A stretch of DNA of 64,000 nucleotides from Candidatus Saccharimonadota bacterium (lineage in GTDB: Bacteria > Patescibacteriota > Saccharimonadia > Saccharimonadales > Saccharimonadaceae), in NCBI GenBank assembly GCA_017421325.1, contig JAFOJO010000024.1:27005-91004 (forward strand), in the 5' to 3' direction. Below the pieces are notes generated by a model that was given only the letters and a program-made list of their open reading frames with translations, was not told the DNA's origin and did not search any database. The position numbers were made by a program, and so were the translations under genes. Every line of letters starts with the position of its first letter. Positions within the stretch are counted from its first letter, which is position 1. Below are positions 21,331 through 62,276 of this stretch, in pieces.

Positions 21331-22515
21331 ATGGCAAATTTTGACCGTTCCAAGCCGCACATTAACGTCGGCACCATGGGTCATGTCGACCATGGTAAAA
21401 CCACTTTAACTGCTGCGATTACTAATGTACTCGCAAAGCGTTTGCCAAGTGATGTTAACAAGGCAGTCGCTTACGACCAAATCGATAACGCTCCAGAAGA
21501 GAAGGCTCGTGGTATCACCATCGCTACTTCTCACCAGGAGTATGAGTCTGAGAAGCGCCACTACGCACACGTAGACATGCCAGGCCACGCAGACTACATT
21601 AAGAACATGATTACCGGTGCCGCTCAGGTAGATGGCGCTATCTTGGTAGTTGCTGCCAATGATGGTCCTTTGCCACAGACTCGTGAGCACGTACTTCTCG
21701 CCCATCAGGTGAACGTACCAAAAATCATTGTGTTCCTAAACAAAATGGACCTAGCTGATCCAGAACTAGTAGAACTAGTAGAGATGGACGTACGTGACCT
21801 ATTGAACAAATATGGTTTCGATGGTGACAATGCGCCTATCATCAAAGGTTCCGCTACTAAGGCCCTTGAAGGCGATAAGGAAAACGAAGACGCTGTTATG
21901 GAACTCGTCAAAGCTATGGATGAGTACTTTGATGTACCAGAACACGATCTCGACAAACCATTCTTGATGCCAATCGAGGATGTCTTCTCTATCAAAGGCC
22001 GTGGCACTGTTGCTACTGGTCGTATCGAGCAGGGCGTCGTAAAATTGAACGATGAAGTTGAAATCGTTGGTCTTAAAGACACTCAAAAGTCGGTTGTAAC
22101 TGGTATCGAAGCCTTCCATAAGACTTTGGACCAAGGTCAAGCTGGCGATAACGCTGGTTTGCTCCTTCGTGGTATCGAGCGCGATCAAATCGAACGCGGT
22201 CAGGTGATTGCAAAGCCTGGTTCAATCACTCCTCATACCGAGTTTGAAGCTCAGGTTTACATCCTCAAGAAAGAGGAAGGTGGTCGTCACACTCCATTTT
22301 CTAAGGGTTACAAGCCACAATTCTACTTCCGCACCACTGACGTGACCGGCGAAGTAGAACTTCCAGCCGATAAGGAAATCGTCATGCCTGGCGATCAGGT
22401 GACCTTCAAGGTTAAATTGCTCGCTCCAGTAGCTATGAACGAGCAAGATCGTTTCGCTATCCGTGAGGGTGGTAAGACTGTTGGCTCCGGTGTTATCACT
22501 AAGGTTATAAAATAA
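21331..22515 (+). CDS. tuf: Elongation factor Tu
   Basis: [25 protein letters not shown]. Confidence 0.99.
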
Positions 22516-22529
22516 TATAGCCACTTTTA

Positions 22530-22555
22530 AAAATAGCCCCTTAAGGGGCTATTTT
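22530..22555 (+). terminator. tuf terminator
   Basis: AAAATAGCCCC-TTAA-GGGGCTATTTT. Confidence 0.85.
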
Positions 22556-22574
22556 TGTGGCTATTTGGTTTTCT

Positions 22575-22725
22575 TGTTCCAGTTACCGGAACCGTTATTG
22601 GGGCGCTATGCTTCGTTAGGAGATGCGCTGCTCATTCGCCGTACGTTAAGTACGGCTCGGTTCGATGCTCCTCCTGCCTCACCTAGCACTCCTACTAACG
22701 ATTTGTCGGAATAGTTACAAATCGC
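22575..22725. repeat. REP-like multi-hairpin element
   Basis: Stems GCCGTAC/GTACGGC, CGTTAG/CTAACG, CGATTTGT/ACAAATCG, GTTCC/GGAAC. Confidence 0.5.
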
Positions 22726-53223: not shown

Positions 53224-53886
53224 ATCTTTATTATACAACGTTTGAGATCGTTCAACTAGAAACTGCGGCGGGTTTGTTTTTGTATGATTTTTATTTAGTG
53301 ATTCACAATATATCCACCACAATTTGATTGGTTTACGCGAAGTAAGCCATAGTAGATTGTGGCCGTTGAGAGACTTATTGTGTTTCGATCTCACGATCAT
53401 ATAGAGTTTTATTGGGAGGTGTGTTTAAGGAAAGAGCGCACGATTTTGGTTTCGCATCTCGCTAATATTGATGCGCGCCAGAGCTCCTAGATGATCGATC
53501 TCAAACTTTTTTAATGTACGACTTTTTGTTTAGCGTTTTTGTTTAATTATTCGCTGATTTAAGTTTATGATATTTTTTCACAAAATGCAAGAGCTTTTTT
53601 GGACTTTTTTTATATTTTTTCACACCCTGAGTTTTTCGCATTTGTGGAAAACTTCCCTGTTAATTTCCCGAACAAAGCTAGTTGAAGTTTTTCGTTTTTT
53701 GTGGTGTAATAACCGAACAGTTCTCTGTAGATAATTTGGCGCTTCCCTGTGGGTGCCGGTTTTGCTTGACTTTTTAGCGTAAATGTGATACAATTGAAGT
53801 AGTTGGGTATTTTGTGGTCTAATCGCTTTTAGCGGTTAGTTTTTTGTTTGTATGATATAATTGGGGGAAATAAGTGGAGATAATAC

Positions 53887-54894
53887 ATGGAAAATACCGA
53901 CCCTATAAAGGAAAGTAATGTGGCCGAACCGTTTGATGTCTTTCTCTGGGCGAACGAGATTGATGAAGTAAAAAACAATGTTTCGGCGGAACTGTTTTTG
54001 TTTAACAAAAATTACACACCGTATAAGATAAAATATTCAGACAAGCTGACCGGCGCAGTGAAGTCGATGTTTATGCAAGAGGCAGTGCATTATATTATAG
54101 AGGAGGCAGACAAGGGTCTGGAATGCCGCGAATACGAGCGGGCTGATGGTGAGGAGAAGGTGATTTATCGTACTTCCCTTTCAAAAGTTGGCCGCGCTGA
54201 AACTTTAATCCACCTGATTGAAAATGAGTATAAAGATATAGATTATTTCTCGGAAAACGAGTACGATTTTAAGAAGGTTAAGGGCATTATTGCAAAGTTT
54301 ACTTACCCGGGCGAAGACGGTATGAAAACTTTCTATATTGCGAAGATTTTGCCAGCTTCGGCGGCACTAAAGGGTGCGACGTCCTGGGAAATTAATGGTG
54401 AAAGTTTTGAGCCGTTCTCTGCCGAGATTGCTCTCAAAATGCCAGAAGATAACCAAGTAGCAATAGTGGATGGCACGATTATTGTGTTTAACCAAGCTAA
54501 GTTTGAAAATTTATTCCAATATGATTATAAATCTCAGGTGATTGCTGAGGCGAAGGCAAAGGAACTCACCGAGAAGTATAAGCTATCCTTTGCGGAGGGG
54601 TTGACTTTGGATTCCCTTTTGGCAGATAAGAAACCTATTCTTAAAAAAGTACAGGCGATGGATATTGCCGAAGAAATGCCGCAAGATAAACTGCTAGATT
54701 ATGCAGATGAGATGCAGCTAGAACTAATGACAGATGATGATGGTTCGATCATCATCATGGACGATAAAGACCTCACAATGTTCGTGAATTTATTGAATGA
54801 AGATTATTATGTATCGCCGGTAAATGGTAAGCGGTACGAAATAAAGTCCAAAAAATTGCTGGGCGAGCCAGATGGTGAACCGCCGAGAGGATAG
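53887..54894 (+). CDS. Acidic protein, possibly KwaB/DUF4868-like
   Basis: Recalled resemblance to the DUF4868 family (FNQAKFE.LF.Y; LLNEDY); not verified. Confidence 0.45.
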   Translation: MENTDPIKESNVAEPFDVFLWANEIDEVKNNVSAELFLFNKNYTPYKIKYSDKLTGAVKSMFMQEAVHYIIEEADKGLECREYERADGEEKVIYRTSLSKVGRAETLIHLIENEYKDIDYFSENEYDFKKVKGIIAKFTYPGEDGMKTFYIAKILPASAALKGATSWEINGESFEPFSAEIALKMPEDNQVAIVDGTIIVFNQAKFENLFQYDYKSQVIAEAKAKELTEKYKLSFAEGLTLDSLLADKKPILKKVQAMDIAEEMPQDKLLDYADEMQLELMTDDDGSIIIMDDKDLTMFVNLLNEDYYVSPVNGKRYEIKSKKLLGEPDGEPPRG

Positions 54895-55565: not shown

Positions 55566-55901
55566 AGGTTAATTATAACACATTCTGCTTGGGGAATTTT
55601 AGCGCGGGTGAAAAATCGAAAAAATCAAAATTTTATACATTTTACTACCGCTTAGAATAAGCAGAGCGGGATGAATTTTAAGCCTAGACGGTTTGTGATA
55701 AAATTATTGTTCGCGCAGCAAAATATTTTTGTGCGGGTGGGGGTTGAAATTATAAATAGAGTGTGCATATACTATAGGCGGGTTGGCTCCGGAGTTTAGT
55801 GGACGCGAGATTCACAAGCCCTAAAAAGAGTTTGTGGTTGTGTGAGGGTCCATTAAACGGTTATTCTAGGCAGACTAGGATCCTAGAAGGGAGATGATTA
55901 A

Positions 55902-55973
55902 ATGACCATACAGATTAATCTGCTATGTATCATCTTTTCCGGACGGAAACGCCGAAGTAAAAAATCTAGCTAG
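55902..55973 (+). CDS. Putative type I toxin-like peptide A (MTIQINLLCIIFSGRKRRSKKSS)
   Basis: Promoter TTGAAA-18-TATACT (55744-73), structured leader, SD AGGGAG 8 nt upstream, terminator 56004-56033. Confidence 0.55.
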   Translation: MTIQINLLCIIFSGRKRRSKKSS

Positions 55974-56035
55974 CTACAAAGCTAACTAGACAACCCAAAA
56001 CTTAGAGAAGTCGTCCTAGAAGGCTTCTCTTTTAT
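55958..56035 (-). ncRNA. Putative antisense RNA A
   Basis: TAGACA-17-TACAAT with extended TG (-10 element 56042-50); two hairpins ending in a T-run. Confidence 0.55.
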
Positions 56036-56047
56036 GCTTTGATTGTA

Positions 56048-57673
56048 TCACGAAATTATCTCTATGTCTACAATGCGAGCCTCGGCAGATTTTACACCGT
56101 TGAAATCATTCTCCATTAGTTTAATCAGTGGTGCTATCTTATCTTCTGGAGTGAGCGCTAGCCATTCTTCGGGAGCATAAAAGGCGACGAGTTTAAGATT
56201 GTTGCCTTTTTTATCTCTAATATCTAAGCGGAGATGATTTTGATCTGTACCCATATGAGAGACATTAGCGATATCTACTTCTGGCAAGCGGAAAATTGGC
56301 TCTTCGTTCCCTGCGCCAAAAGGTTCTAAAGATTTTAGCTCGTCCAGGAATCCTAGAGATAAATCGGCCAGGCTAGAGACATCTAAATCAGCATGATTTT
56401 TAAGGCAATCTTCCTGGCCGGTGAGATGTAGACTTTTATAATACTCGTTGATTTTCTCACGGAAACTATAGAGTTGTTTGCCATCCACCCGCACACCAGC
56501 GGCGCCAGCATGGCCACCGCCGCCGATAATGGAATCTTTAGCAAAATCTAGTGCGGCGGCTAGGCTAAAATCACCGAAGCTACGTCCGGAACCTTTAAAA
56601 ATACCGTTCCCTACCTCTGATAATACAAAGGCTGGGCGGTGATAATCTTCTACTAGGCGGCCAGCGATGATGCCCAAAATTCCCTCGTGCCAGACACCAG
56701 TTTCTATAATTACTGGGTCATCTGAAATGCCCCGAGTGGAAATCTCTTTGATGGCGGCTTGCTGTTCTGCTTTGCGTTTTTTATTGAGCTCTTCTAGCCG
56801 TTCGGCCAGGGTGGCAGCATCAGTAGGAGAGGTGGCGCGGAGCAAATCTAGCGAAAGGTGAGCGGATTTTAGCCGGCCGGCGGCGTTTAACCGTGGGCCA
56901 ATCTGAAAGCCGATGCTTTCGGCGGTAAGAGTTTTTACCCTAGCTCTATTCATTAGTTCCTTCAGCCCGGCGCGGCGAGTTTTGGCTAGCACTTTTACTC
57001 CGTAATAGCCGAGAATACGGTTTTCACCGGTGAGGAGCATATTGTCACAGATAGTGCCGATGAGCACCAAGTCTAGCAGCCATTTTTCTTGGCCGCTAGG
57101 GATTATCCCTTTCCTTACTAAGCCTTGGGCGAGTTTAAAGGCTACCCCTACACCGGCGAGGTTTTTAAGATTTGGTTTTTCTTCTACAAAATCTGGACGT
57201 TTGGGATTAACCACCGCGAGAGCATTTGGCAAATCTGTGCTACATTCGTGGTGGTCTGTAACGATGGTGTCAATTTTTAAGGTATTTAGTTCATCTATAA
57301 TGGCGTGATTTTTCGAGCCACAGTCTACCGTAATCACCAAGGTAACTCCCTGTTTTTTGGCGCGAGTAATTAGGCGCGGACTCATACCGTAACCATCCGC
57401 AAAACGGTCTGGCAACATAATATCTATATTTTCAGGATTGGCGCCGGCCAGGGTAAGCGCATCCGCCATTACGGTACTAGCGGTGACGCCGTCCACATCG
57501 TAGTCGCCATAGATTAGAATCTTCTCGTTCTCTGCTATAGCTTGATTAATTCTGTCTGCCGCCTTATCTAAATCCGGCAAAACGAATGGGTCAGTAAGAT
57601 TTTCGTATCTAGGGGCTAAAAAACTGCGATCTAGCCCACGCGCTTCTAATAAGCGTTCAAATAATTTACTCAT
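56048..57673 (-). CDS. recJ: ssDNA exonuclease RecJ
   Basis: IYGDYDVDG, TVDCG, TDHH, PRLNAAGRL, GGGHAGAAG. Confidence 0.96.
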   Translation of the reverse strand: MSKLFERLLEARGLDRSFLAPRYENLTDPFVLPDLDKAADRINQAIAENEKILIYGDYDVDGVTASTVMADALTLAGANPENIDIMLPDRFADGYGMSPRLITRAKKQGVTLVITVDCGSKNHAIIDELNTLKIDTIVTDHHECSTDLPNALAVVNPKRPDFVEEKPNLKNLAGVGVAFKLAQGLVRKGIIPSGQEKWLLDLVLIGTICDNMLLTGENRILGYYGVKVLAKTRRAGLKELMNRARVKTLTAESIGFQIGPRLNAAGRLKSAHLSLDLLRATSPTDAATLAERLEELNKKRKAEQQAAIKEISTRGISDDPVIIETGVWHEGILGIIAGRLVEDYHRPAFVLSEVGNGIFKGSGRSFGDFSLAAALDFAKDSIIGGGGHAGAAGVRVDGKQLYSFREKINEYYKSLHLTGQEDCLKNHADLDVSSLADLSLGFLDELKSLEPFGAGNEEPIFRLPEVDIANVSHMGTDQNHLRLDIRDKKGNNLKLVAFYAPEEWLALTPEDKIAPLIKLMENDFNGVKSAEARIVDIEIIS

Positions 57674-58026: not shown

Positions 58027-58144
58027 CACGACTAAATAACACCTTTCGGGGTCGTGTCCGTCCGGCCCGTCGCCACGGGCGGCCGGCACTAATTCTCGCG
58101 CTGCCGCGCTCCGAAATGCCCCGAAAGGTATTATTCTAGTCGTG
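58027..58144. repeat. REP-like nested palindrome
   Basis: CACGACTA/TAGTCGTG, ACCTTTCGGGG/CCCCGAAAGGT, inner GCCCGT/ACGGGC. Confidence 0.7.
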
Positions 58145-58165
58145 TCTGATGCTATAATTATATAT

Positions 58166-60109
58166 ATGTTCTATGAGGTGATACCTGGGAAGGTGTTTGG
58201 TAAGGGGGAGGTGCTGACGTATATGTCTGACGAAGCCTTAGCGCCCGGGCAGATTGTGATAGTGCCGCTAGGACGAAGCAAGGCAGTAGGCGTAGTTAGT
58301 AAAAAAGTTGCGCAACCAGATTTTGCCACCAAAAAGATTTTGCAAGTTTTGTATTCAACGCCGCTGCCGGCACATTTAATTGCTACGGCAAAGTTCGTAG
58401 CAGAATATTACCAAGTGCCGCTAGCTAGCACTCTGGGACTAATACTGCCAAATGGAGTAGATAAGAGGCGGCGAAAAACCGAACAAATGTTCGGGAACAT
58501 AGCAAAAACCGAACAGGCCGCTGCTAATGCGGAAATCCCGCTTAACCAGGCTCAAAAAAATGCGCTAGAAGCCCTAAAAAAGGCCACAGGAGCCACGAAA
58601 CTACTGCATGGCGTGACCGGAAGCGGTAAAACTAATATATACCTCAAAATGGCTAAAAATGCCCTTTTAGCGCAAAAATCTACTATACTTTTGGTGCCGG
58701 AAATAGCTTTAACGGGGCAACTTGTTCGGGTTTTTGAGAAATATTTTGGCGACAAGGTGGTATTAATCCATTCCCGACAGACAGAGGCCGAGCGACATTT
58801 GATCTTTAATTCCCTCCTAGAAACAGATGAAACTAAGATAATAATAGGACCAAGATCTGCCCTGTTTGCGCCTTTAAAAAACCTGGGGCTAATTATTATA
58901 GATGAGGCACATGAGGGCACTTACCATCAAGAGAATGCACCAAAATATTCGGCGATAAGAGTAGCAAGCTACATGGCCGGGAAGCTAGGAATTAACCTGA
59001 TTTTGGGTTCAGCTACTCCTACAGTGGAAGATTATTACTTGGCGGAGAAAAAAGGTGCTCTAGTGATACTAAAAGAAAAGGCCAAAACTACCGCAGTAAA
59101 GCCAGAAATTAAGATTATAGACCTAAAAAACAGAGATAATTTTAGTAAAAACCGGTATTTTTCTAATTCCCTGCTTGCGGCGATCAAAAACAACTTAGAA
59201 CAGGGGCAACAGACGCTAATTTTCCATAATCGTAGGGGGTCTGCGCCGCTCACGATTTGCGAAAGTTGCGGCGAGGAGATGATTTGCCCAAACTGCTATC
59301 TACCCCTGACACTACATGCCGATACCTATGAGCTGGTATGTCATACTTGCGGACACAAGGAGCGAGTACCGCTAAATTGCCCTAAGTGTGGTGCGCCAGA
59401 ATTAATACACAAGGGGTTTGGCACGAAGCTATTAGAGAGTGAATTAAAAAAGCTCTTCCCTGGTGCACAGGTAAAGCGATTTGACGCAGACAACAAAAAA
59501 GGCGAGGGGCTAGATGTGGTGTATTCAGAAGTAAGAGGTGGTGAGGTGGATATACTGGTTGGCACGCAGACCTTAGCGAAGGGGCTAGATTTACCTAGAT
59601 TAGCTACGGTGGGGGTGGCACAGGCTGATGCAGGGCTAAATTTACCGGATTTTATGGCAGAGGAAAGGACTTTTCAGCTGATTACCCAGGTGATAGGCCG
59701 GGTAGGGCGGGGGCATAGCGACAAAGCAGAGGCGTTTATACAGACATTTCGGCCGGAAAGCCCTGTGATAAATATGGCAGTAGAGTCTGACTATTTTGGG
59801 TTTTACGAATATACAGTGAAAAAGCGGCACCAGGCTGGGTTTCCGCCGTTTATGTTTGTAGCGAAGCTAGAAATCGCCATGAAAACAGAGGCGATTGTGC
59901 TGAAAAAAGTACGCACGGCAGTGGCAAGTCTCGCCCGAGATAAACGACTGTTAGTTTCCCCGCCAATGCCGGCGTTTCACGAGCATACTAGTAGGGGATA
60001 TACCTGGCAGATTATCGTGCGGACTAAATCTCGTAAAGTATTGATAGAGGCGTGTAAAGATTTAGGCCCGAATTTTCGTGTGACTTTCGACCCGGTGGGG
60101 CTATTGTGA
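58166..60109 (+). CDS. priA: Primosomal protein N'
   Basis: GVTGSGKT, LVPEIALT, DEAH, NRRG, two CxxC pairs, GRVGRG. Confidence 0.95.
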   Translation: MFYEVIPGKVFGKGEVLTYMSDEALAPGQIVIVPLGRSKAVGVVSKKVAQPDFATKKILQVLYSTPLPAHLIATAKFVAEYYQVPLASTLGLILPNGVDKRRRKTEQMFGNIAKTEQAAANAEIPLNQAQKNALEALKKATGATKLLHGVTGSGKTNIYLKMAKNALLAQKSTILLVPEIALTGQLVRVFEKYFGDKVVLIHSRQTEAERHLIFNSLLETDETKIIIGPRSALFAPLKNLGLIIIDEAHEGTYHQENAPKYSAIRVASYMAGKLGINLILGSATPTVEDYYLAEKKGALVILKEKAKTTAVKPEIKIIDLKNRDNFSKNRYFSNSLLAAIKNNLEQGQQTLIFHNRRGSAPLTICESCGEEMICPNCYLPLTLHADTYELVCHTCGHKERVPLNCPKCGAPELIHKGFGTKLLESELKKLFPGAQVKRFDADNKKGEGLDVVYSEVRGGEVDILVGTQTLAKGLDLPRLATVGVAQADAGLNLPDFMAEERTFQLITQVIGRVGRGHSDKAEAFIQTFRPESPVINMAVESDYFGFYEYTVKKRHQAGFPPFMFVAKLEIAMKTEAIVLKKVRTAVASLARDKRLLVSPPMPAFHEHTSRGYTWQIIVRTKSRKVLIEACKDLGPNFRVTFDPVGLL

Positions 60110-60172
60110 TTATTGTCTTTCCGCCTAAACAGTAATTTTTGGCTTTAGCGCTAAATGTGATATAATGTAAAC

Positions 60173-60243
60173 ATAAAGAGGAAGTTCTCTAGGAAAACTC
60201 CCTCGAATGGGTTGTTAGATTAGGCTAGTAGCCTAATCTTTTT
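60173..60243 (+). ncRNA. Putative antisense RNA B
   Basis: TGATATAAT (60158-66); hairpin 60178-60203; terminator 60216-38 plus T-run. Confidence 0.55.
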
Positions 60244-60297
60244 CTTCGGTTTGTCGTCTTTGTTCCGGTTGACAATGATCAAAGCGATTTGAAACAT
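60232..60297 (-). CDS. Putative type I toxin-like peptide B (MFQIALIIVNRNKDDKPKKKD)
   Basis: Promoter TTGACT-18-TATACT (60426-55, minus), leader homologous to module A, SD AGGAAGG. Confidence 0.55.
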
Positions 60298-60605
60298 TTT
60301 AACCTTCCTAGGGCAACTTTGGCACACCTAGAATAGCCGTTTAGTGAGCCCTCACACAACCGCAAACTCTTTTCAGGGCTTGTGAATTTTTGTGCCCACT
60401 AAACCCCCGAAGCCAACCCGCCCATAGTATAGGCAGATTGAATTTGAAAAGTCAACCCCTTACTTGGGAAATTGGGAGCGTAAGAAGTTTTACCTCTAAA
60501 GAATTAAGATGGTACTTGCGGTTATTTTAAGCCTAGGCGGAATAGGAGTGCATACCTTTGGCGAAAATGTGGGTAGTTTACTCGTAACCTAAATTGGTAA
60601 ATTCG

Positions 60606-62276
60606 TCAGCGGGCGAGACAACGGATAGAACGTCCGTGAGTTCTGCCGCTGCCATATCTACCAGCTAAATCCACCGTGTGCTTACCAAAGTATAAATAGT
60701 ATGTGCTCCTATAGTCAGAAACGGTGCTAGACCAATTACTACCACCAGAACCAGCAAAATAGAGCGGCCCACCGTCTATATTTCCAGATCGCGTAAAATA
60801 TAAAGGCGCATCGATCCAACCTACGTCGGAGTCAATGTTGTCTCTATTGTATAAATTATTAAGTTTAGTGAATTCATTAGCATCTTGACTTGAAATTACT
60901 GGCAATCTCCATCCTTTAGGACAAATAGAGTTTTGCGGATTTTTAGTTATGTTAACATAGGTATTAGACATGAATGAACTACTATCGTCGCTAGCAATGG
61001 CGGCAGACCAGTTGTAGTAATTGCCCGTTGAGCCATGGGTACTATTATTGTGGTATGGAGTTCGTGAGAAATGTTCACAAGCAGCAATAAGATAGTTGCA
61101 GTCCGACGTATCGTCGTTTGCATCCCAATACCATTCGCCTACATCCATAGAATAAGCTTTATTATTGTTATTTACCCACGCCGCACCGGTTCCAGTGTTG
61201 TAATTTCTGGTGACATTCTCTGGAGTCCAAGTAATAATTCTGGTATTCGGGTCATACGAGTAGTGTAAGTTATAGGCCCCAGTAAGTGAGTTGTCGTTTA
61301 GGTCTGTTTCCTCTGACGTAAGAGCTATAGAAGAAGATAGATCTAGATCTAGATTTTGTGTCATCCAACAGTGCCCATCTTTTAGTTTGGAGACGTAGTA
61401 TAGTTTATTGTCTCGTATGTCCACTAGTTTTTCTTCTGTTTCATAAGTAGTGGTTAAGGAGCATATTCTACTACTCATGTCTTGCATTTTGTAGTAGTTG
61501 CCAGTTTCACCTGTGATAGGATCTGTGACTTGTACTTTGTCTTTACCGGCTATATCAAAGGCTTCTTCCATAGTAGTAAGTTGGCTAGCATCATATGGGT
61601 GAGTCATGGTATATTTAACTTTACCTAGATAAGTTCCTGCTGGTTGGATGGGATTAGTGTATATTTCGTAGGTGGTATTAAAGTATGAACCAGTTAAGTC
61701 CGTGTTTAGATCCATGCTGGTGCCGGATGTTCTATAAGCCACTATAGTATCTGTACTAGGTATGAGATTATAGTTATTATATACATCTACTACAGTAGGA
61801 GCATAAGTTCCATTACTACTAGTTAACTTCATAGCCCAGGATGAAGGGGTATTGGCAGTTATTGTGCTACTATCATACACATTAGTATGAATATTATAGT
61901 TATCATTAATACTACTAACTAAATCCGTATTACCATCTGTATCATTACTACTACCTATAGCATAGATGAAATAGCCATTATTATCATTACAGTAAGCATT
62001 AATTCTAGTATTACCAATATTTCCTTCATATTGGCCATTAACTAATGTGGCATTATGTGGAGTAAGTATATTAGCGCTAATAGTACATGAAGTAGGTAGA
62101 GATAAAGAAACGCTGTCTGTACTAGAACTATATGCAGAACTATGAGATGATAAATGAGATAAAACAACACTAGAAACAACAAGAAGAGGAACAGAAACTA
62201 ACAATACATTACGGAAAGCATAGTAGAAGAAATCTGCTCTACTACTCATTAATGATTGTTTTACTTTGTGGCCCAT
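60606..62276 (-). CDS. FISUMP-domain surface protein, paralog 4
   Basis: Same architecture; N-domain closest to paralog 2. Confidence 0.75.
   Translation of the reverse strand: MGHKVKQSLMSSRADFFYYAFRNVLLVSVPLLVVSSVVLSHLSSHSSAYSSSTDSVSLSLPTSCTISANILTPHNATLVNGQYEGNIGNTRINAYCNDNNGYFIYAIGSSNDTDGNTDLVSSINDNYNIHTNVYDSSTITANTPSSWAMKLTSSNGTYAPTVVDVYNNYNLIPSTDTIVAYRTSGTSMDLNTDLTGSYFNTTYEIYTNPIQPAGTYLGKVKYTMTHPYDASQLTTMEEAFDIAGKDKVQVTDPITGETGNYYKMQDMSSRICSLTTTYETEEKLVDIRDNKLYYVSKLKDGHCWMTQNLDLDLSSSIALTSEETDLNDNSLTGAYNLHYSYDPNTRIITWTPENVTRNYNTGTGAAWVNNNNKAYSMDVGEWYWDANDDTSDCNYLIAACEHFSRTPYHNNSTHGSTGNYYNWSAAIASDDSSSFMSNTYVNITKNPQNSICPKGWRLPVISSQDANEFTKLNNLYNRDNIDSDVGWIDAPLYFTRSGNIDGGPLYFAGSGGSNWSSTVSDYRSTYYLYFGKHTVDLAGRYGSGRTHGRSIRCLAR

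Follow-up and report, generated by a model that had tools for sequence, protein, structure and literature searches.

The 64,000-nucleotide (nt) stretch of DNA analyzed here (the window) stems from a rumen lineage of Saccharibacteria, and its DNA occurs in bovine, goat, and other gut metagenomes. It carries two copies, A and B, of a compact module that a preliminary description had called type I toxin-antitoxin (TA)-like. Module B, the subject of this study, lies in a 496-nt spacer between the convergent ends of priA and a gene for a 556-amino-acid (aa) protein. Each of the two modules in the window stands tail to tail with a housekeeping gene (recJ for A and priA for B). The parts of module B and its two neighbors are as follows.

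58142-60109, plus strand: priA, the gene facing the module B spacer
60606-62276, minus strand: gene for the 556-aa protein, upstream of module B, with no Pfam match of its own
60455 to 60160, minus strand: module B as a whole
60426..60455, minus strand: predicted sigma-70 promoter of the module B mRNA, TTGACT (60455-60450), 18-nt spacer, TATACT (60431-60426)
60316..60421, minus strand: leader of about 105 nt, with clamp segments GGGTTGG and GCTTCGG, a long irregular hairpin, and the near-invariant GTTTGYGGTTGTGTGAGGG
60419-60413, minus strand: 5′ clamp segment GGGTTGG
60413-60407, minus strand: 5′ clamp segment GCTTCGG
60404-60394 and 60349-60339, minus strand: leader base stem, GTTTAGTGGGC with GCTCACTAAAC
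60303..60338, minus strand: hairpin sequestering the Shine-Dalgarno (SD) sequence; GGCTATTCTAGG at the 3′ end of the leader (60338-60327) is paired to CCTAGGAAGG, the segment holding the SD GGAAGG
60308-60303, minus strand: SD GGAAGG, 5 nt before the ATG at 60297
60220..60297, minus strand: small open reading frame (ORF) of 25 aa, ATG at 60297, TAA at 60222-60220, peptide MFQIALIIVNRNKDDKPKKKIRLLA
60217..60239, both strands: hairpin 1 (10 bp), a stem-loop over the ORF end in the mRNA; on the plus strand, with TTTTTCTT (to about 60247), the antisense terminator
60209..60214, minus strand: CAACCC linker between the 3′ hairpins, partner of the 5′ GGGTTG
60168..60204, minus strand: intrinsic terminator of the mRNA, 12-bp stem (60204-60178), loop TCCTAGA, T-run
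60139..60166, plus strand: convergent extended -10 antisense promoter, TTGGCT-16-TGaTATAAT
60173..60247, plus strand: predicted antisense RNA, about 75 nt; the linker between its two hairpins, GGGUUGU, repeats the mRNA 5′ end

Transcription of the module B mRNA is predicted to start at about 60423-60419. The GGGG-TTGA context of the -35 box and the -10 box were conserved in all homologs. Module B had been presented as an inverted homolog of A with the same layout and the same 18-nt promoter spacing, and both statements held. The promoters TTGACT-18-TATACT (B) and TTGAAA-18-TATACT (A) were found, and the two modules share this spacing, the leader, the SD, the small ORF, two 3′ hairpins, and the convergent extended -10 promoter. 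Module A has the same set of parts on the opposite strand.

55744..56070, plus strand: module A, paralog of B
55744-55773, plus strand: promoter, TTGAAA-18-TATACT
55778-55881, plus strand: leader
55902-55973, plus strand: ORF, peptide MTIQINLLCIIFSGRKRRSKKSS
55964-55991, plus strand: hairpin 1
55991-55996, plus strand: CAACCC
about 56004-56034, plus strand: mRNA terminator
56070-56042, minus strand: antisense promoter

When either module was compared with the window by blastn, only the other module matched (82% identity over 133 nt, E value 3e-31, plus a weaker 3′ match). In the pairwise alignment of A and B, the leader was about 90% identical, the ORF had diverged, and the 3′ part was moderately conserved. 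The high similarity claimed for the ~100-nt leader was confirmed by the blastn match and by covariance models, which gave 121.7 bits for the leader of A and, for that of B, 105 bits (model R1) and 90.5 bits (model R2). The next match to the leader model in the 64 kb had an E value of 0.08 and lay inside an ORF, and a broader second model agreed. Two borderline matches (53268-53348 and 22500-22592; E values of 0.08 to 0.4) were rejected: the first is inside an ORF, and neither shows the ORF/antisense layout. The leader base stem had been described as changed by compensation between A and B. Its position was right, but compensation from A to B amounts to one two-sided pair only (A-U to G-C), accompanied by two one-sided wobble changes (G·U to G-C and G-C to G·U). 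With further homologs included, two leader-stem positions each show AU, GU, and GC.

Related sequence totaling about 0.5 Mb was gathered by three routes: exact-word scans of genome and metagenome collections with a 21-base leader word, contigs coding for the window's own proteins, and contigs coding for PriA homologs of 70 to 94% identity. L numbers below are labels of related contigs or strains, and a suffix a or b marks an individual module on one contig. The genome scan gave one true match, L009, with two further matches inside rplB of Lentimicrobium rejected as chance. The metagenome scan gave two true matches, L012 and L013. L014, a high-GC phage contig and the sole match from three viral scans, was likewise rejected as chance, so these scans gave no sign of phage carriage. 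In total, 12 distinct leader-bearing modules and 1 leaderless copy were found on rumen and other Saccharibacteria contigs, with the same part order in all. The preliminary description had named leaders ahead of unrelated long genes as the sign of a riboswitch-like element. All 12 leader matches instead precede a small ORF and lie within about 20 nt of an SD, and riboswitch-type placement of the leader before diverse, related long genes was not found among these 12 matches in the ~0.5 Mb of related contigs. The 3′ half of the leader, GUUUGYGGUUGUGUGAGGGUCCAYUAAAC, is almost invariant in ten modules; the apical loop, ORF tail, and 3′ hairpins vary.

In the modules examined, the predicted promoter and intrinsic terminator enclose mRNAs of about 247 to 262 nt. 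Both window RNAs (A and B) folded better than all 200 shuffles (z of -4.5 and -5.9). An RNAalifold consensus on five, later eight, full-length mRNAs gave one architecture. Two 5′ segments form long-range pairs, GCUUCGG with CCGAAG(U/C) at the ORF end and GGGUUGG with the (C)CAACC(C) that separates the 3′ hairpins; the remaining elements are the long leader hairpin, a small UUCUAGG hairpin, a helix burying the SD, and hairpin 1 with the terminator. The five-sequence alignment contains 91 consensus pairs, with 93.3% of cells paired. Two-sided changes were found at 16 pairs, versus 7.2±1.8 in shuffles (0 of 500 reached 16) and 1 to 5 in slid controls. The leader stem, the SD/anti-SD helix, and the two 3′ hairpins are backed by covariation, with compensation concentrated in the terminator (7 pairs) and hairpin 1 (5 pairs). 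Hairpin 1 is hypervariable in sequence and kept as a hairpin in every homolog; the terminator loop UCCUAGA is invariant.

In the clamp between the mRNA ends, the helix GCUUCGG:CCGAAGU is invariant in 8 of 8 common-type sequences (types are given with the peptides below); in module B, the CCGAAG partner of the 5′ CUUCGG is at 60249-60244, within the ORF. The (C)CAACC(C) motif recurs in metagenome and metatranscriptome variants. As had been proposed, the GGGTTG/CAACCC fold-back is kept: both segments are present and are paired in most of ten minimum-energy folds, the exceptions being L020a (partial) and L032b (none; here the conserved leader segment is the partner of the 3′ linker). In these folds the SD of module B pairs with the leader UAUUCUAGG, and that of the common ORF type pairs with ORF codons 10 to 14. 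SD/anti-SD pair 117:169 is AU in three cases, GC in three, and GU in one, so that the only amino acid replacement seen recurrently, SG to PN at codons 13-14, is tied to a change beside the SD. SD sequestration and 5′–3′ interaction were both predicted in silico in most of the ten independent folds. With its SD buried and its ends clamped, the full-length mRNA should be translationally inert. As a separate observation, CTAG is enriched in both modules (7 copies in 55744-56075 and 4 in 60135-60455, each about 330 nt, versus 4.7 per kb window-wide), mainly within hairpin loops and SD/anti-SD segments.

The small ORF of module B encodes 25 aa and not 21 aa as first described. A 21-aa form does occur in L001, L003, and L004, where an extra A in the A-run after CCGAAG (equivalent to 60240-60244) shifts the frame, and the peptide ends in KKKD rather than the KKKIRLLA of the 25-aa window form. 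A 35-aa ORF from GTG 60327 was rejected, as no SD lies ahead of the GTG while GGAAGG is placed 5 nt before ATG 60297. The peptides of the family are of the following types.

Common, in eight leader-bearing modules and the leaderless L027 priA-site copy: MTIQ[IV]NLLCIIF[SP][GN]RKRRSKK…
Common, distant, in the relative with 70% PriA identity: MTIEINLLCIILRRLRNRRSKKSTR
B, in this window: MFQIALIIVNRNKDDKPKKKIRLLA
Divergent, in L032: MGVRFSLWRLQITVKLSFRRVCRRKKLVSES

Across modules, the ORFs encode basic peptides of 22 to 31 aa, and each has an SD. The earlier description noted a shared QI-hydrophobic-then-charged pattern in the peptide; the ORF of B is in frame with the common type over Q-I-x-L, where the codons differ synonymously. 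Close common-type ORFs and metagenome variants contain seven distinct synonymous changes (I5 twice, L8, C9, I10, R15, and S19), and the replacements in close common-type ORFs are I5V and SG to PN/PD at codons 13-14, the latter covarying with the SD region. Most single-base substitutions within common-type ORFs are synonymous, and RNA structure alone gives no third-position periodicity, so the ORF looks like a translated sequence. The last five codons of module B lie inside hairpin 1, and AAAAAA (Lys-Lys codons) doubles as the U-tract of the antisense terminator. The C termini across the family (SS, SN, N, VRP, STR, IRLLA, or D after the +1 A) differ because the final residues are encoded by the hypervariable hairpin.

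The predicted antisense RNA is fully complementary to the final ~75 nt of the mRNA, from the last ~25 nt of the ORF through hairpin 1 and the CAACCC linker to the terminator. Of the 11 modules whose 3′ sequence is available, 10 have TGnTAYAAT at the same distance past the mRNA terminator, amid bases that are not conserved. The box is weaker and shifted in L032b; the promoter of L013 is perfect (TTGACA-17-TGgTATAAT). Predicted antisense RNAs are 73 to 79 nt long across modules, with a single-stranded linker that contains GGGUUG or GGUUGG, the mRNA 5′ clamp sequence. Scan tools and the alignment agreed with the earlier statement that the terminator and antisense sequences of A and B have diverged while both hairpins were kept. 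The suggestion that this divergence could give module-specific pairing fits the predicted duplex energies. Cognate antisense/mRNA duplexes were predicted at -126 to -139 kcal/mol, far stronger than those between distinct modules (-43 to -76 kcal/mol). The values for module B were -131.7 kcal/mol for the cognate duplex and -43 to -54 kcal/mol with other modules. L012 and L013 are near-identical, and their cross-pairs reached about -121 kcal/mol.

Members of the family are transcribed in the sense region. An adapter-flanked 137-nt insert in a cDNA metatranscriptome exactly matches B at 60269-60405 (leader plus first codons), in a run with zero coverage of the neighboring genes, and three other cDNA runs yielded common-type contigs of 165 to 211 nt that extend from the leader to the CAACCC linker. 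Depth was rejected as an expression measure. In DNA metagenomes, the module core has 3 to 10 times the depth of single-copy flanks, and since these DNA samples give the same excess, it reflects copy number and not expression. The core also joins many different flanks, and together these data show that the module is multi-copy.

Modules are gained, lost, and recombined, as judged from site occupancy and mosaics. The priA site is occupied in the window, L001 to L004, L008, L012, and L020 and empty (a 58-nt spacer) in L007, L021, and L023 to L026. The recJ site is occupied in all relatives with a PriA identity of at least 87%. In relatives whose PriA is 81% or 70% identical, the priA and recJ sites are both tightly closed, and in the one at 70%, two divergent modules occupy other intergenic positions. 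At the priA site of L012 and L020, a B-type promoter and flank are combined with the common ORF, and in metagenome contigs the common ORF follows a B-type SD region. The priA spacer of L027 (11921-12274) holds a natural deletion derivative in which a B-type promoter is fused to ...AGATGGTTAAATG and the common ORF; the ~100-nt leader and SD are lost, and the 3′ hairpins and antisense promoter are intact. The divergent module of L032 (19181-19907), with a 31-aa amphipathic basic ORF, adjoins tRNA-Asn. Two tandem ~70-nt repeats there start with the sequence of one end of the tRNA-Asn gene and look like an integration-site scar.

Taken together, module B is probably a type I TA-like locus belonging to a new, unannotated, multi-copy sequence family in Saccharibacteria, with toxicity and the antisense RNA as predictions. 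This reading rests on the match in sizes and parts to the generic definition of type I TA systems: a toxin mRNA of 150 to 400 nt, a peptide of 20 to 60 aa, an antisense RNA of 60 to 200 nt, SD sequestration, and 5′–3′ interaction (PMC8594479). The mRNAs and ORFs of the modules fall within these ranges. It rests also on layout, since the 3′-overlapping antisense arrangement is that of Gram-positive type I families (PMC8594479). All features that can be tested in silico are present and recur in all 12 leader-bearing homologs, in agreement with the preliminary description. Peptide toxicity, antisense transcription, and neutralization would be expected under this reading.

Under the TA reading, a sigma-70-type promoter would drive an mRNA of about 250 nt, whose 5′ GGGUUGG-CUUCGG would clamp onto CCGAAG at the ORF end and CAACCC between the 3′ hairpins. 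The convergent extended -10 promoter would make the ~75-nt two-hairpin antisense RNA. The two RNAs may first meet by loop–loop kissing, through conserved hairpin loops that contain CUAG (YUNR-like). Extension of the duplex would follow, and the mRNA would either be degraded by RNase III, as with RatA/txpA and SR4/bsrG, or stay closed. Upon loss of the antisense RNA, 3′ trimming or refolding would open the clamp and free the SD, and the 22- to 25-aa peptide would be made. This peptide, with a short hydrophobic N terminus and a polybasic tail, would be expected to inhibit growth. Turnover of hairpin sequence with the structure kept would make each antisense RNA specific to its own copy.

Several points weigh against a TA function. 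In A, no more than 14 consecutive residues are uncharged or hydrophobic, and in B no more than 10 (8 of them strongly hydrophobic); a hydrophobic segment of this kind (8 to 13 aa) is shorter than the ~18- to 20-aa membrane helix typical of type I toxins. The divergent L032b peptide is amphipathic and basic, not hydrophobic. Searches of Pfam and NCBIfam with three peptides at E values up to 10 matched no toxin family (Fst, Ldr, Hok/Gef, Ibs, TisB, ShoB, Bsr/TxpA, and others), and the peptides belong to no Pfam or NCBIfam family. No Rfam antitoxin (RatA, SR4, RNAII/Fst, Sok, Sib, IstR, and others) matched. The whole 64-kb window gave no Rfam match at gathering scores, and 60100-60610, searched at E values up to 10, gave sub-threshold matches only, the best being RatA (RF01776; 21.4 bits versus a gathering score of 49) and ctRNA_pND324 (23 versus 45). 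All RNA evidence consists of unstranded assembled contigs, which do not tell apart the strand of the transcript. The linker of the antisense RNA has the same sequence as the mRNA 5′ end, so that binding of this RNA could, in this model, lead to clamp opening instead of silencing. Another possibility is that the antisense terminator doubles as the terminator of the convergent priA or recJ. Finally, the leader 3′ half is more conserved than the ORF and may have a function of its own.

A more specific proposal, which we entertain only tentatively, is a type I TA family specific to Saccharibacteria or the Candidate Phyla Radiation (CPR) that departs from textbook systems in having a non-membrane toxin and a clamp-mimicking antisense RNA. 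The hydrophobic head would be too short for a membrane span, and the target would be the ribosome, nucleic acid, or an inner-leaflet surface. The antisense GGGUUG would compete with the mRNA 5′ end for the 3′ CAACCC, and clamp opening would be coupled to duplex formation and decay, with the invariant 3′ half of the leader serving as an additional switch.

Rather unlikely is a genuine small-protein gene, controlled by antisense RNA and mRNA structure, whose basic peptide is not a self-toxin and instead has a physiological role, for example, in binding the ribosome, nucleic acid, or the envelope or in acting on the epibiont's host bacterium. A short hydrophobic segment with a strongly basic tail, one divergent member that is amphipathic and cationic, the lack of any toxin-family match, and retention of the recJ-site copy in all the closer relatives noted above would suit such a peptide. 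Against it stand the multi-copy family with hypervariable antisense-interaction hairpins and strain-variable presence, the tolerance of frameshifted and leaderless derivatives, and the double lock on translation by SD sequestration and the 5′–3′ clamp. Multiple copies, tolerated derivatives, and a double lock are hallmarks of addiction-type modules and not of housekeeping small proteins.

A locus with no dedicated antisense RNA is quite unlikely. In that case the plus-strand hairpin and T-run would be the terminator of priA (recJ for A), the extended -10 would be a chance or vestigial sequence, and the locus would be a small gene with a structured mRNA only. The tail-to-tail position of both window modules with a housekeeping gene is compatible with this, as are the overlap of A's antisense -35 box with the last recJ codons and the unstranded RNA contigs. 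The fixed placement of TGnTAYAAT in 10 of 11 modules argues otherwise, as it includes the unrelated contexts of L009, L013, and L032a, its surrounding bases are not conserved, and the L013 box is perfect.

We consider it highly unlikely that the leader RNA is the functional unit (a riboswitch-like sensor, a protein-binding RNA, or a small RNA) and the ORF incidental. The near-invariance of the leader 3′ half in ten modules, next to a variable ORF tail and variable 3′ hairpins, is what such a unit would show. However, 12 of 12 leaders are followed by an SD and small ORF and none precedes a long gene, ORF substitutions are codon-periodic and mostly synonymous, L027 keeps the ORF and antisense unit without a leader, and Rfam gave no match. 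A decaying repeat or miniature mobile element without present function is scarcely credible: multiple copies, strain-variable presence, and mosaic and deleted variants would fit one, but there are no terminal inverted or direct repeats, four helices are kept by compensatory evolution, the ORF is under purifying selection, the promoters are conserved, and the modules are present in cDNA libraries.

The surroundings of the modules gave further observations. The flank at 60456..60590 (no strand assigned) moves with module B and forms with it a ~480-nt segment that is missing from strain L007. Inside it, a 27-aa hydrophobic ORF, MVLAVILSLGGIGVHTFGENVGSLLVT (60509-60592, plus strand), may be a second unannotated small gene, as suggested by the L027 copy, which shows 3 synonymous and 2 replacement differences. 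A 17-nt motif, ATTTTAAGCCTAGRCGG, with the palindromic core GCCTAGGC, occurs at 55675-55691 and 60524-60540, 50 to 70 nt upstream of the -35 boxes of both modules; both copies are on the plus strand of the window despite the opposite orientations of the modules, and L027 has the motif too. It could be an operator or a coincidence (E value of about 0.1 within the window). An ortholog of the 556-aa protein (60606-62276) in L029 shows a faint match to Fib_succ_major (PF09603). A paralog at 6607-7407 of L009, with the C-terminal motif ...CWMTQNLDLD...RCLAR kept, is also immediately upstream of a module. Two genes from module A, a 335-aa gene (53887-54894, plus strand) matches Pfam KwaB (Kiwa defense protein B-like; 34.7 bits versus a cutoff of 26.3); its synteny is kept in all relatives examined, and an adjacent KwaA partner was not obvious. 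Upstream of it is a promoter-like TTGACT-N17-TGATACAAT (53768-53797, plus strand) close in sequence to the module B antisense promoter (23 nt, 91% identity by blastn), a likeness that probably reflects the local strong-promoter consensus. No tRNA or tmRNA was found in the window.

The type I TA catalog is almost entirely from Firmicutes and Proteobacteria; T1TAdb comprises 24 families from 218 species (PMC8594479). Our literature search found no report joining type I TA systems with Saccharibacteria and no mention of a type I toxin in the Patescibacteria, CPR, or TM7 papers that it listed. Module loci are invisible to gene callers. An exact look-up of nine module peptides and spurious ORFs among 15 billion proteins found none, i.e., they have never been called as genes. 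Because the modules are repeats, they break rumen Saccharibacteria assemblies. Saccharibacteria are epibionts with genomes of about 1 Mb, and fast-diversifying, RNA-controlled copies in them bear on the persistence of selfish or defense-type elements. The family, being compact (~300 nt) and rich in covariation, is also useful to RNA biology.

Among known systems, RatA and SR4 act through duplex decay by RNase III. The group to which they belong has no sequence or covariance-model similarity to the module and comes from another phylum; its toxins are 29 to 59 aa long with a full membrane helix, and its antisense RNAs are 180 to 220 nt, versus about 75 nt predicted for the module. We know of no 5′–3′ clamp in this group. 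Nevertheless, TxpA/RatA, BsrG/SR4, BsrE/SR5, and YonT/SR6 of Bacillus subtilis resemble the predicted layout of the module in having convergent genes and a 3′-side antisense RNA that overlaps the ORF end and has its own promoter and terminator (PMC8594479).

Fst/RNAII (par of pAD1, Enterococcus) and SprA1/SprA1as are like the module as predicted here in their short convergent RNAs, their small antisense RNA, and the expected YUNR-like first contact. Both systems combine short convergent RNAs, including an antisense RNA of about 65 to 75 nt, with an expected first contact at U-turn (YUNR) motifs of the terminator loop and a 5′ structure that represses translation. In contrast with the module, par has a shared bidirectional terminator, and its decisive pairing takes place at 5′ direct repeats outside the overlap (PMC8594479). 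The entire predicted antisense RNA of the module is complementary to the mRNA 3′ end, and the peptides are unrelated.

In hok/Sok (plasmid R1) and AapA1/IsoA1 (Helicobacter pylori), as predicted for the module, 5′–3′ pairing locks the mRNA in an inert fold, the SD is sequestered, and chromosomal loci are multi-copy (PMC8594479). Their antisense RNAs, however, lie inside the mRNA and target its 5′ or translation initiation region, whereas that predicted for the module overlaps the 3′ end and copies the 5′ clamp. The Ibs/Sib systems of E. coli have peptides of 18 to 19 aa, several genomic copies, and variable antisense regions that give copy-specific pairing. They share very small peptides, multiple copies, and the copy-specific pairing predicted here with the module but differ in that Sib spans the whole ibs ORF and that Ibs is uniformly hydrophobic, in place of the short hydrophobic head and polybasic tail of the module peptides. 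What is unusual in the module family is that a predicted 3′ antisense RNA is joined with a hok/AapA1-style 5′–3′ clamp and a very small basic peptide.

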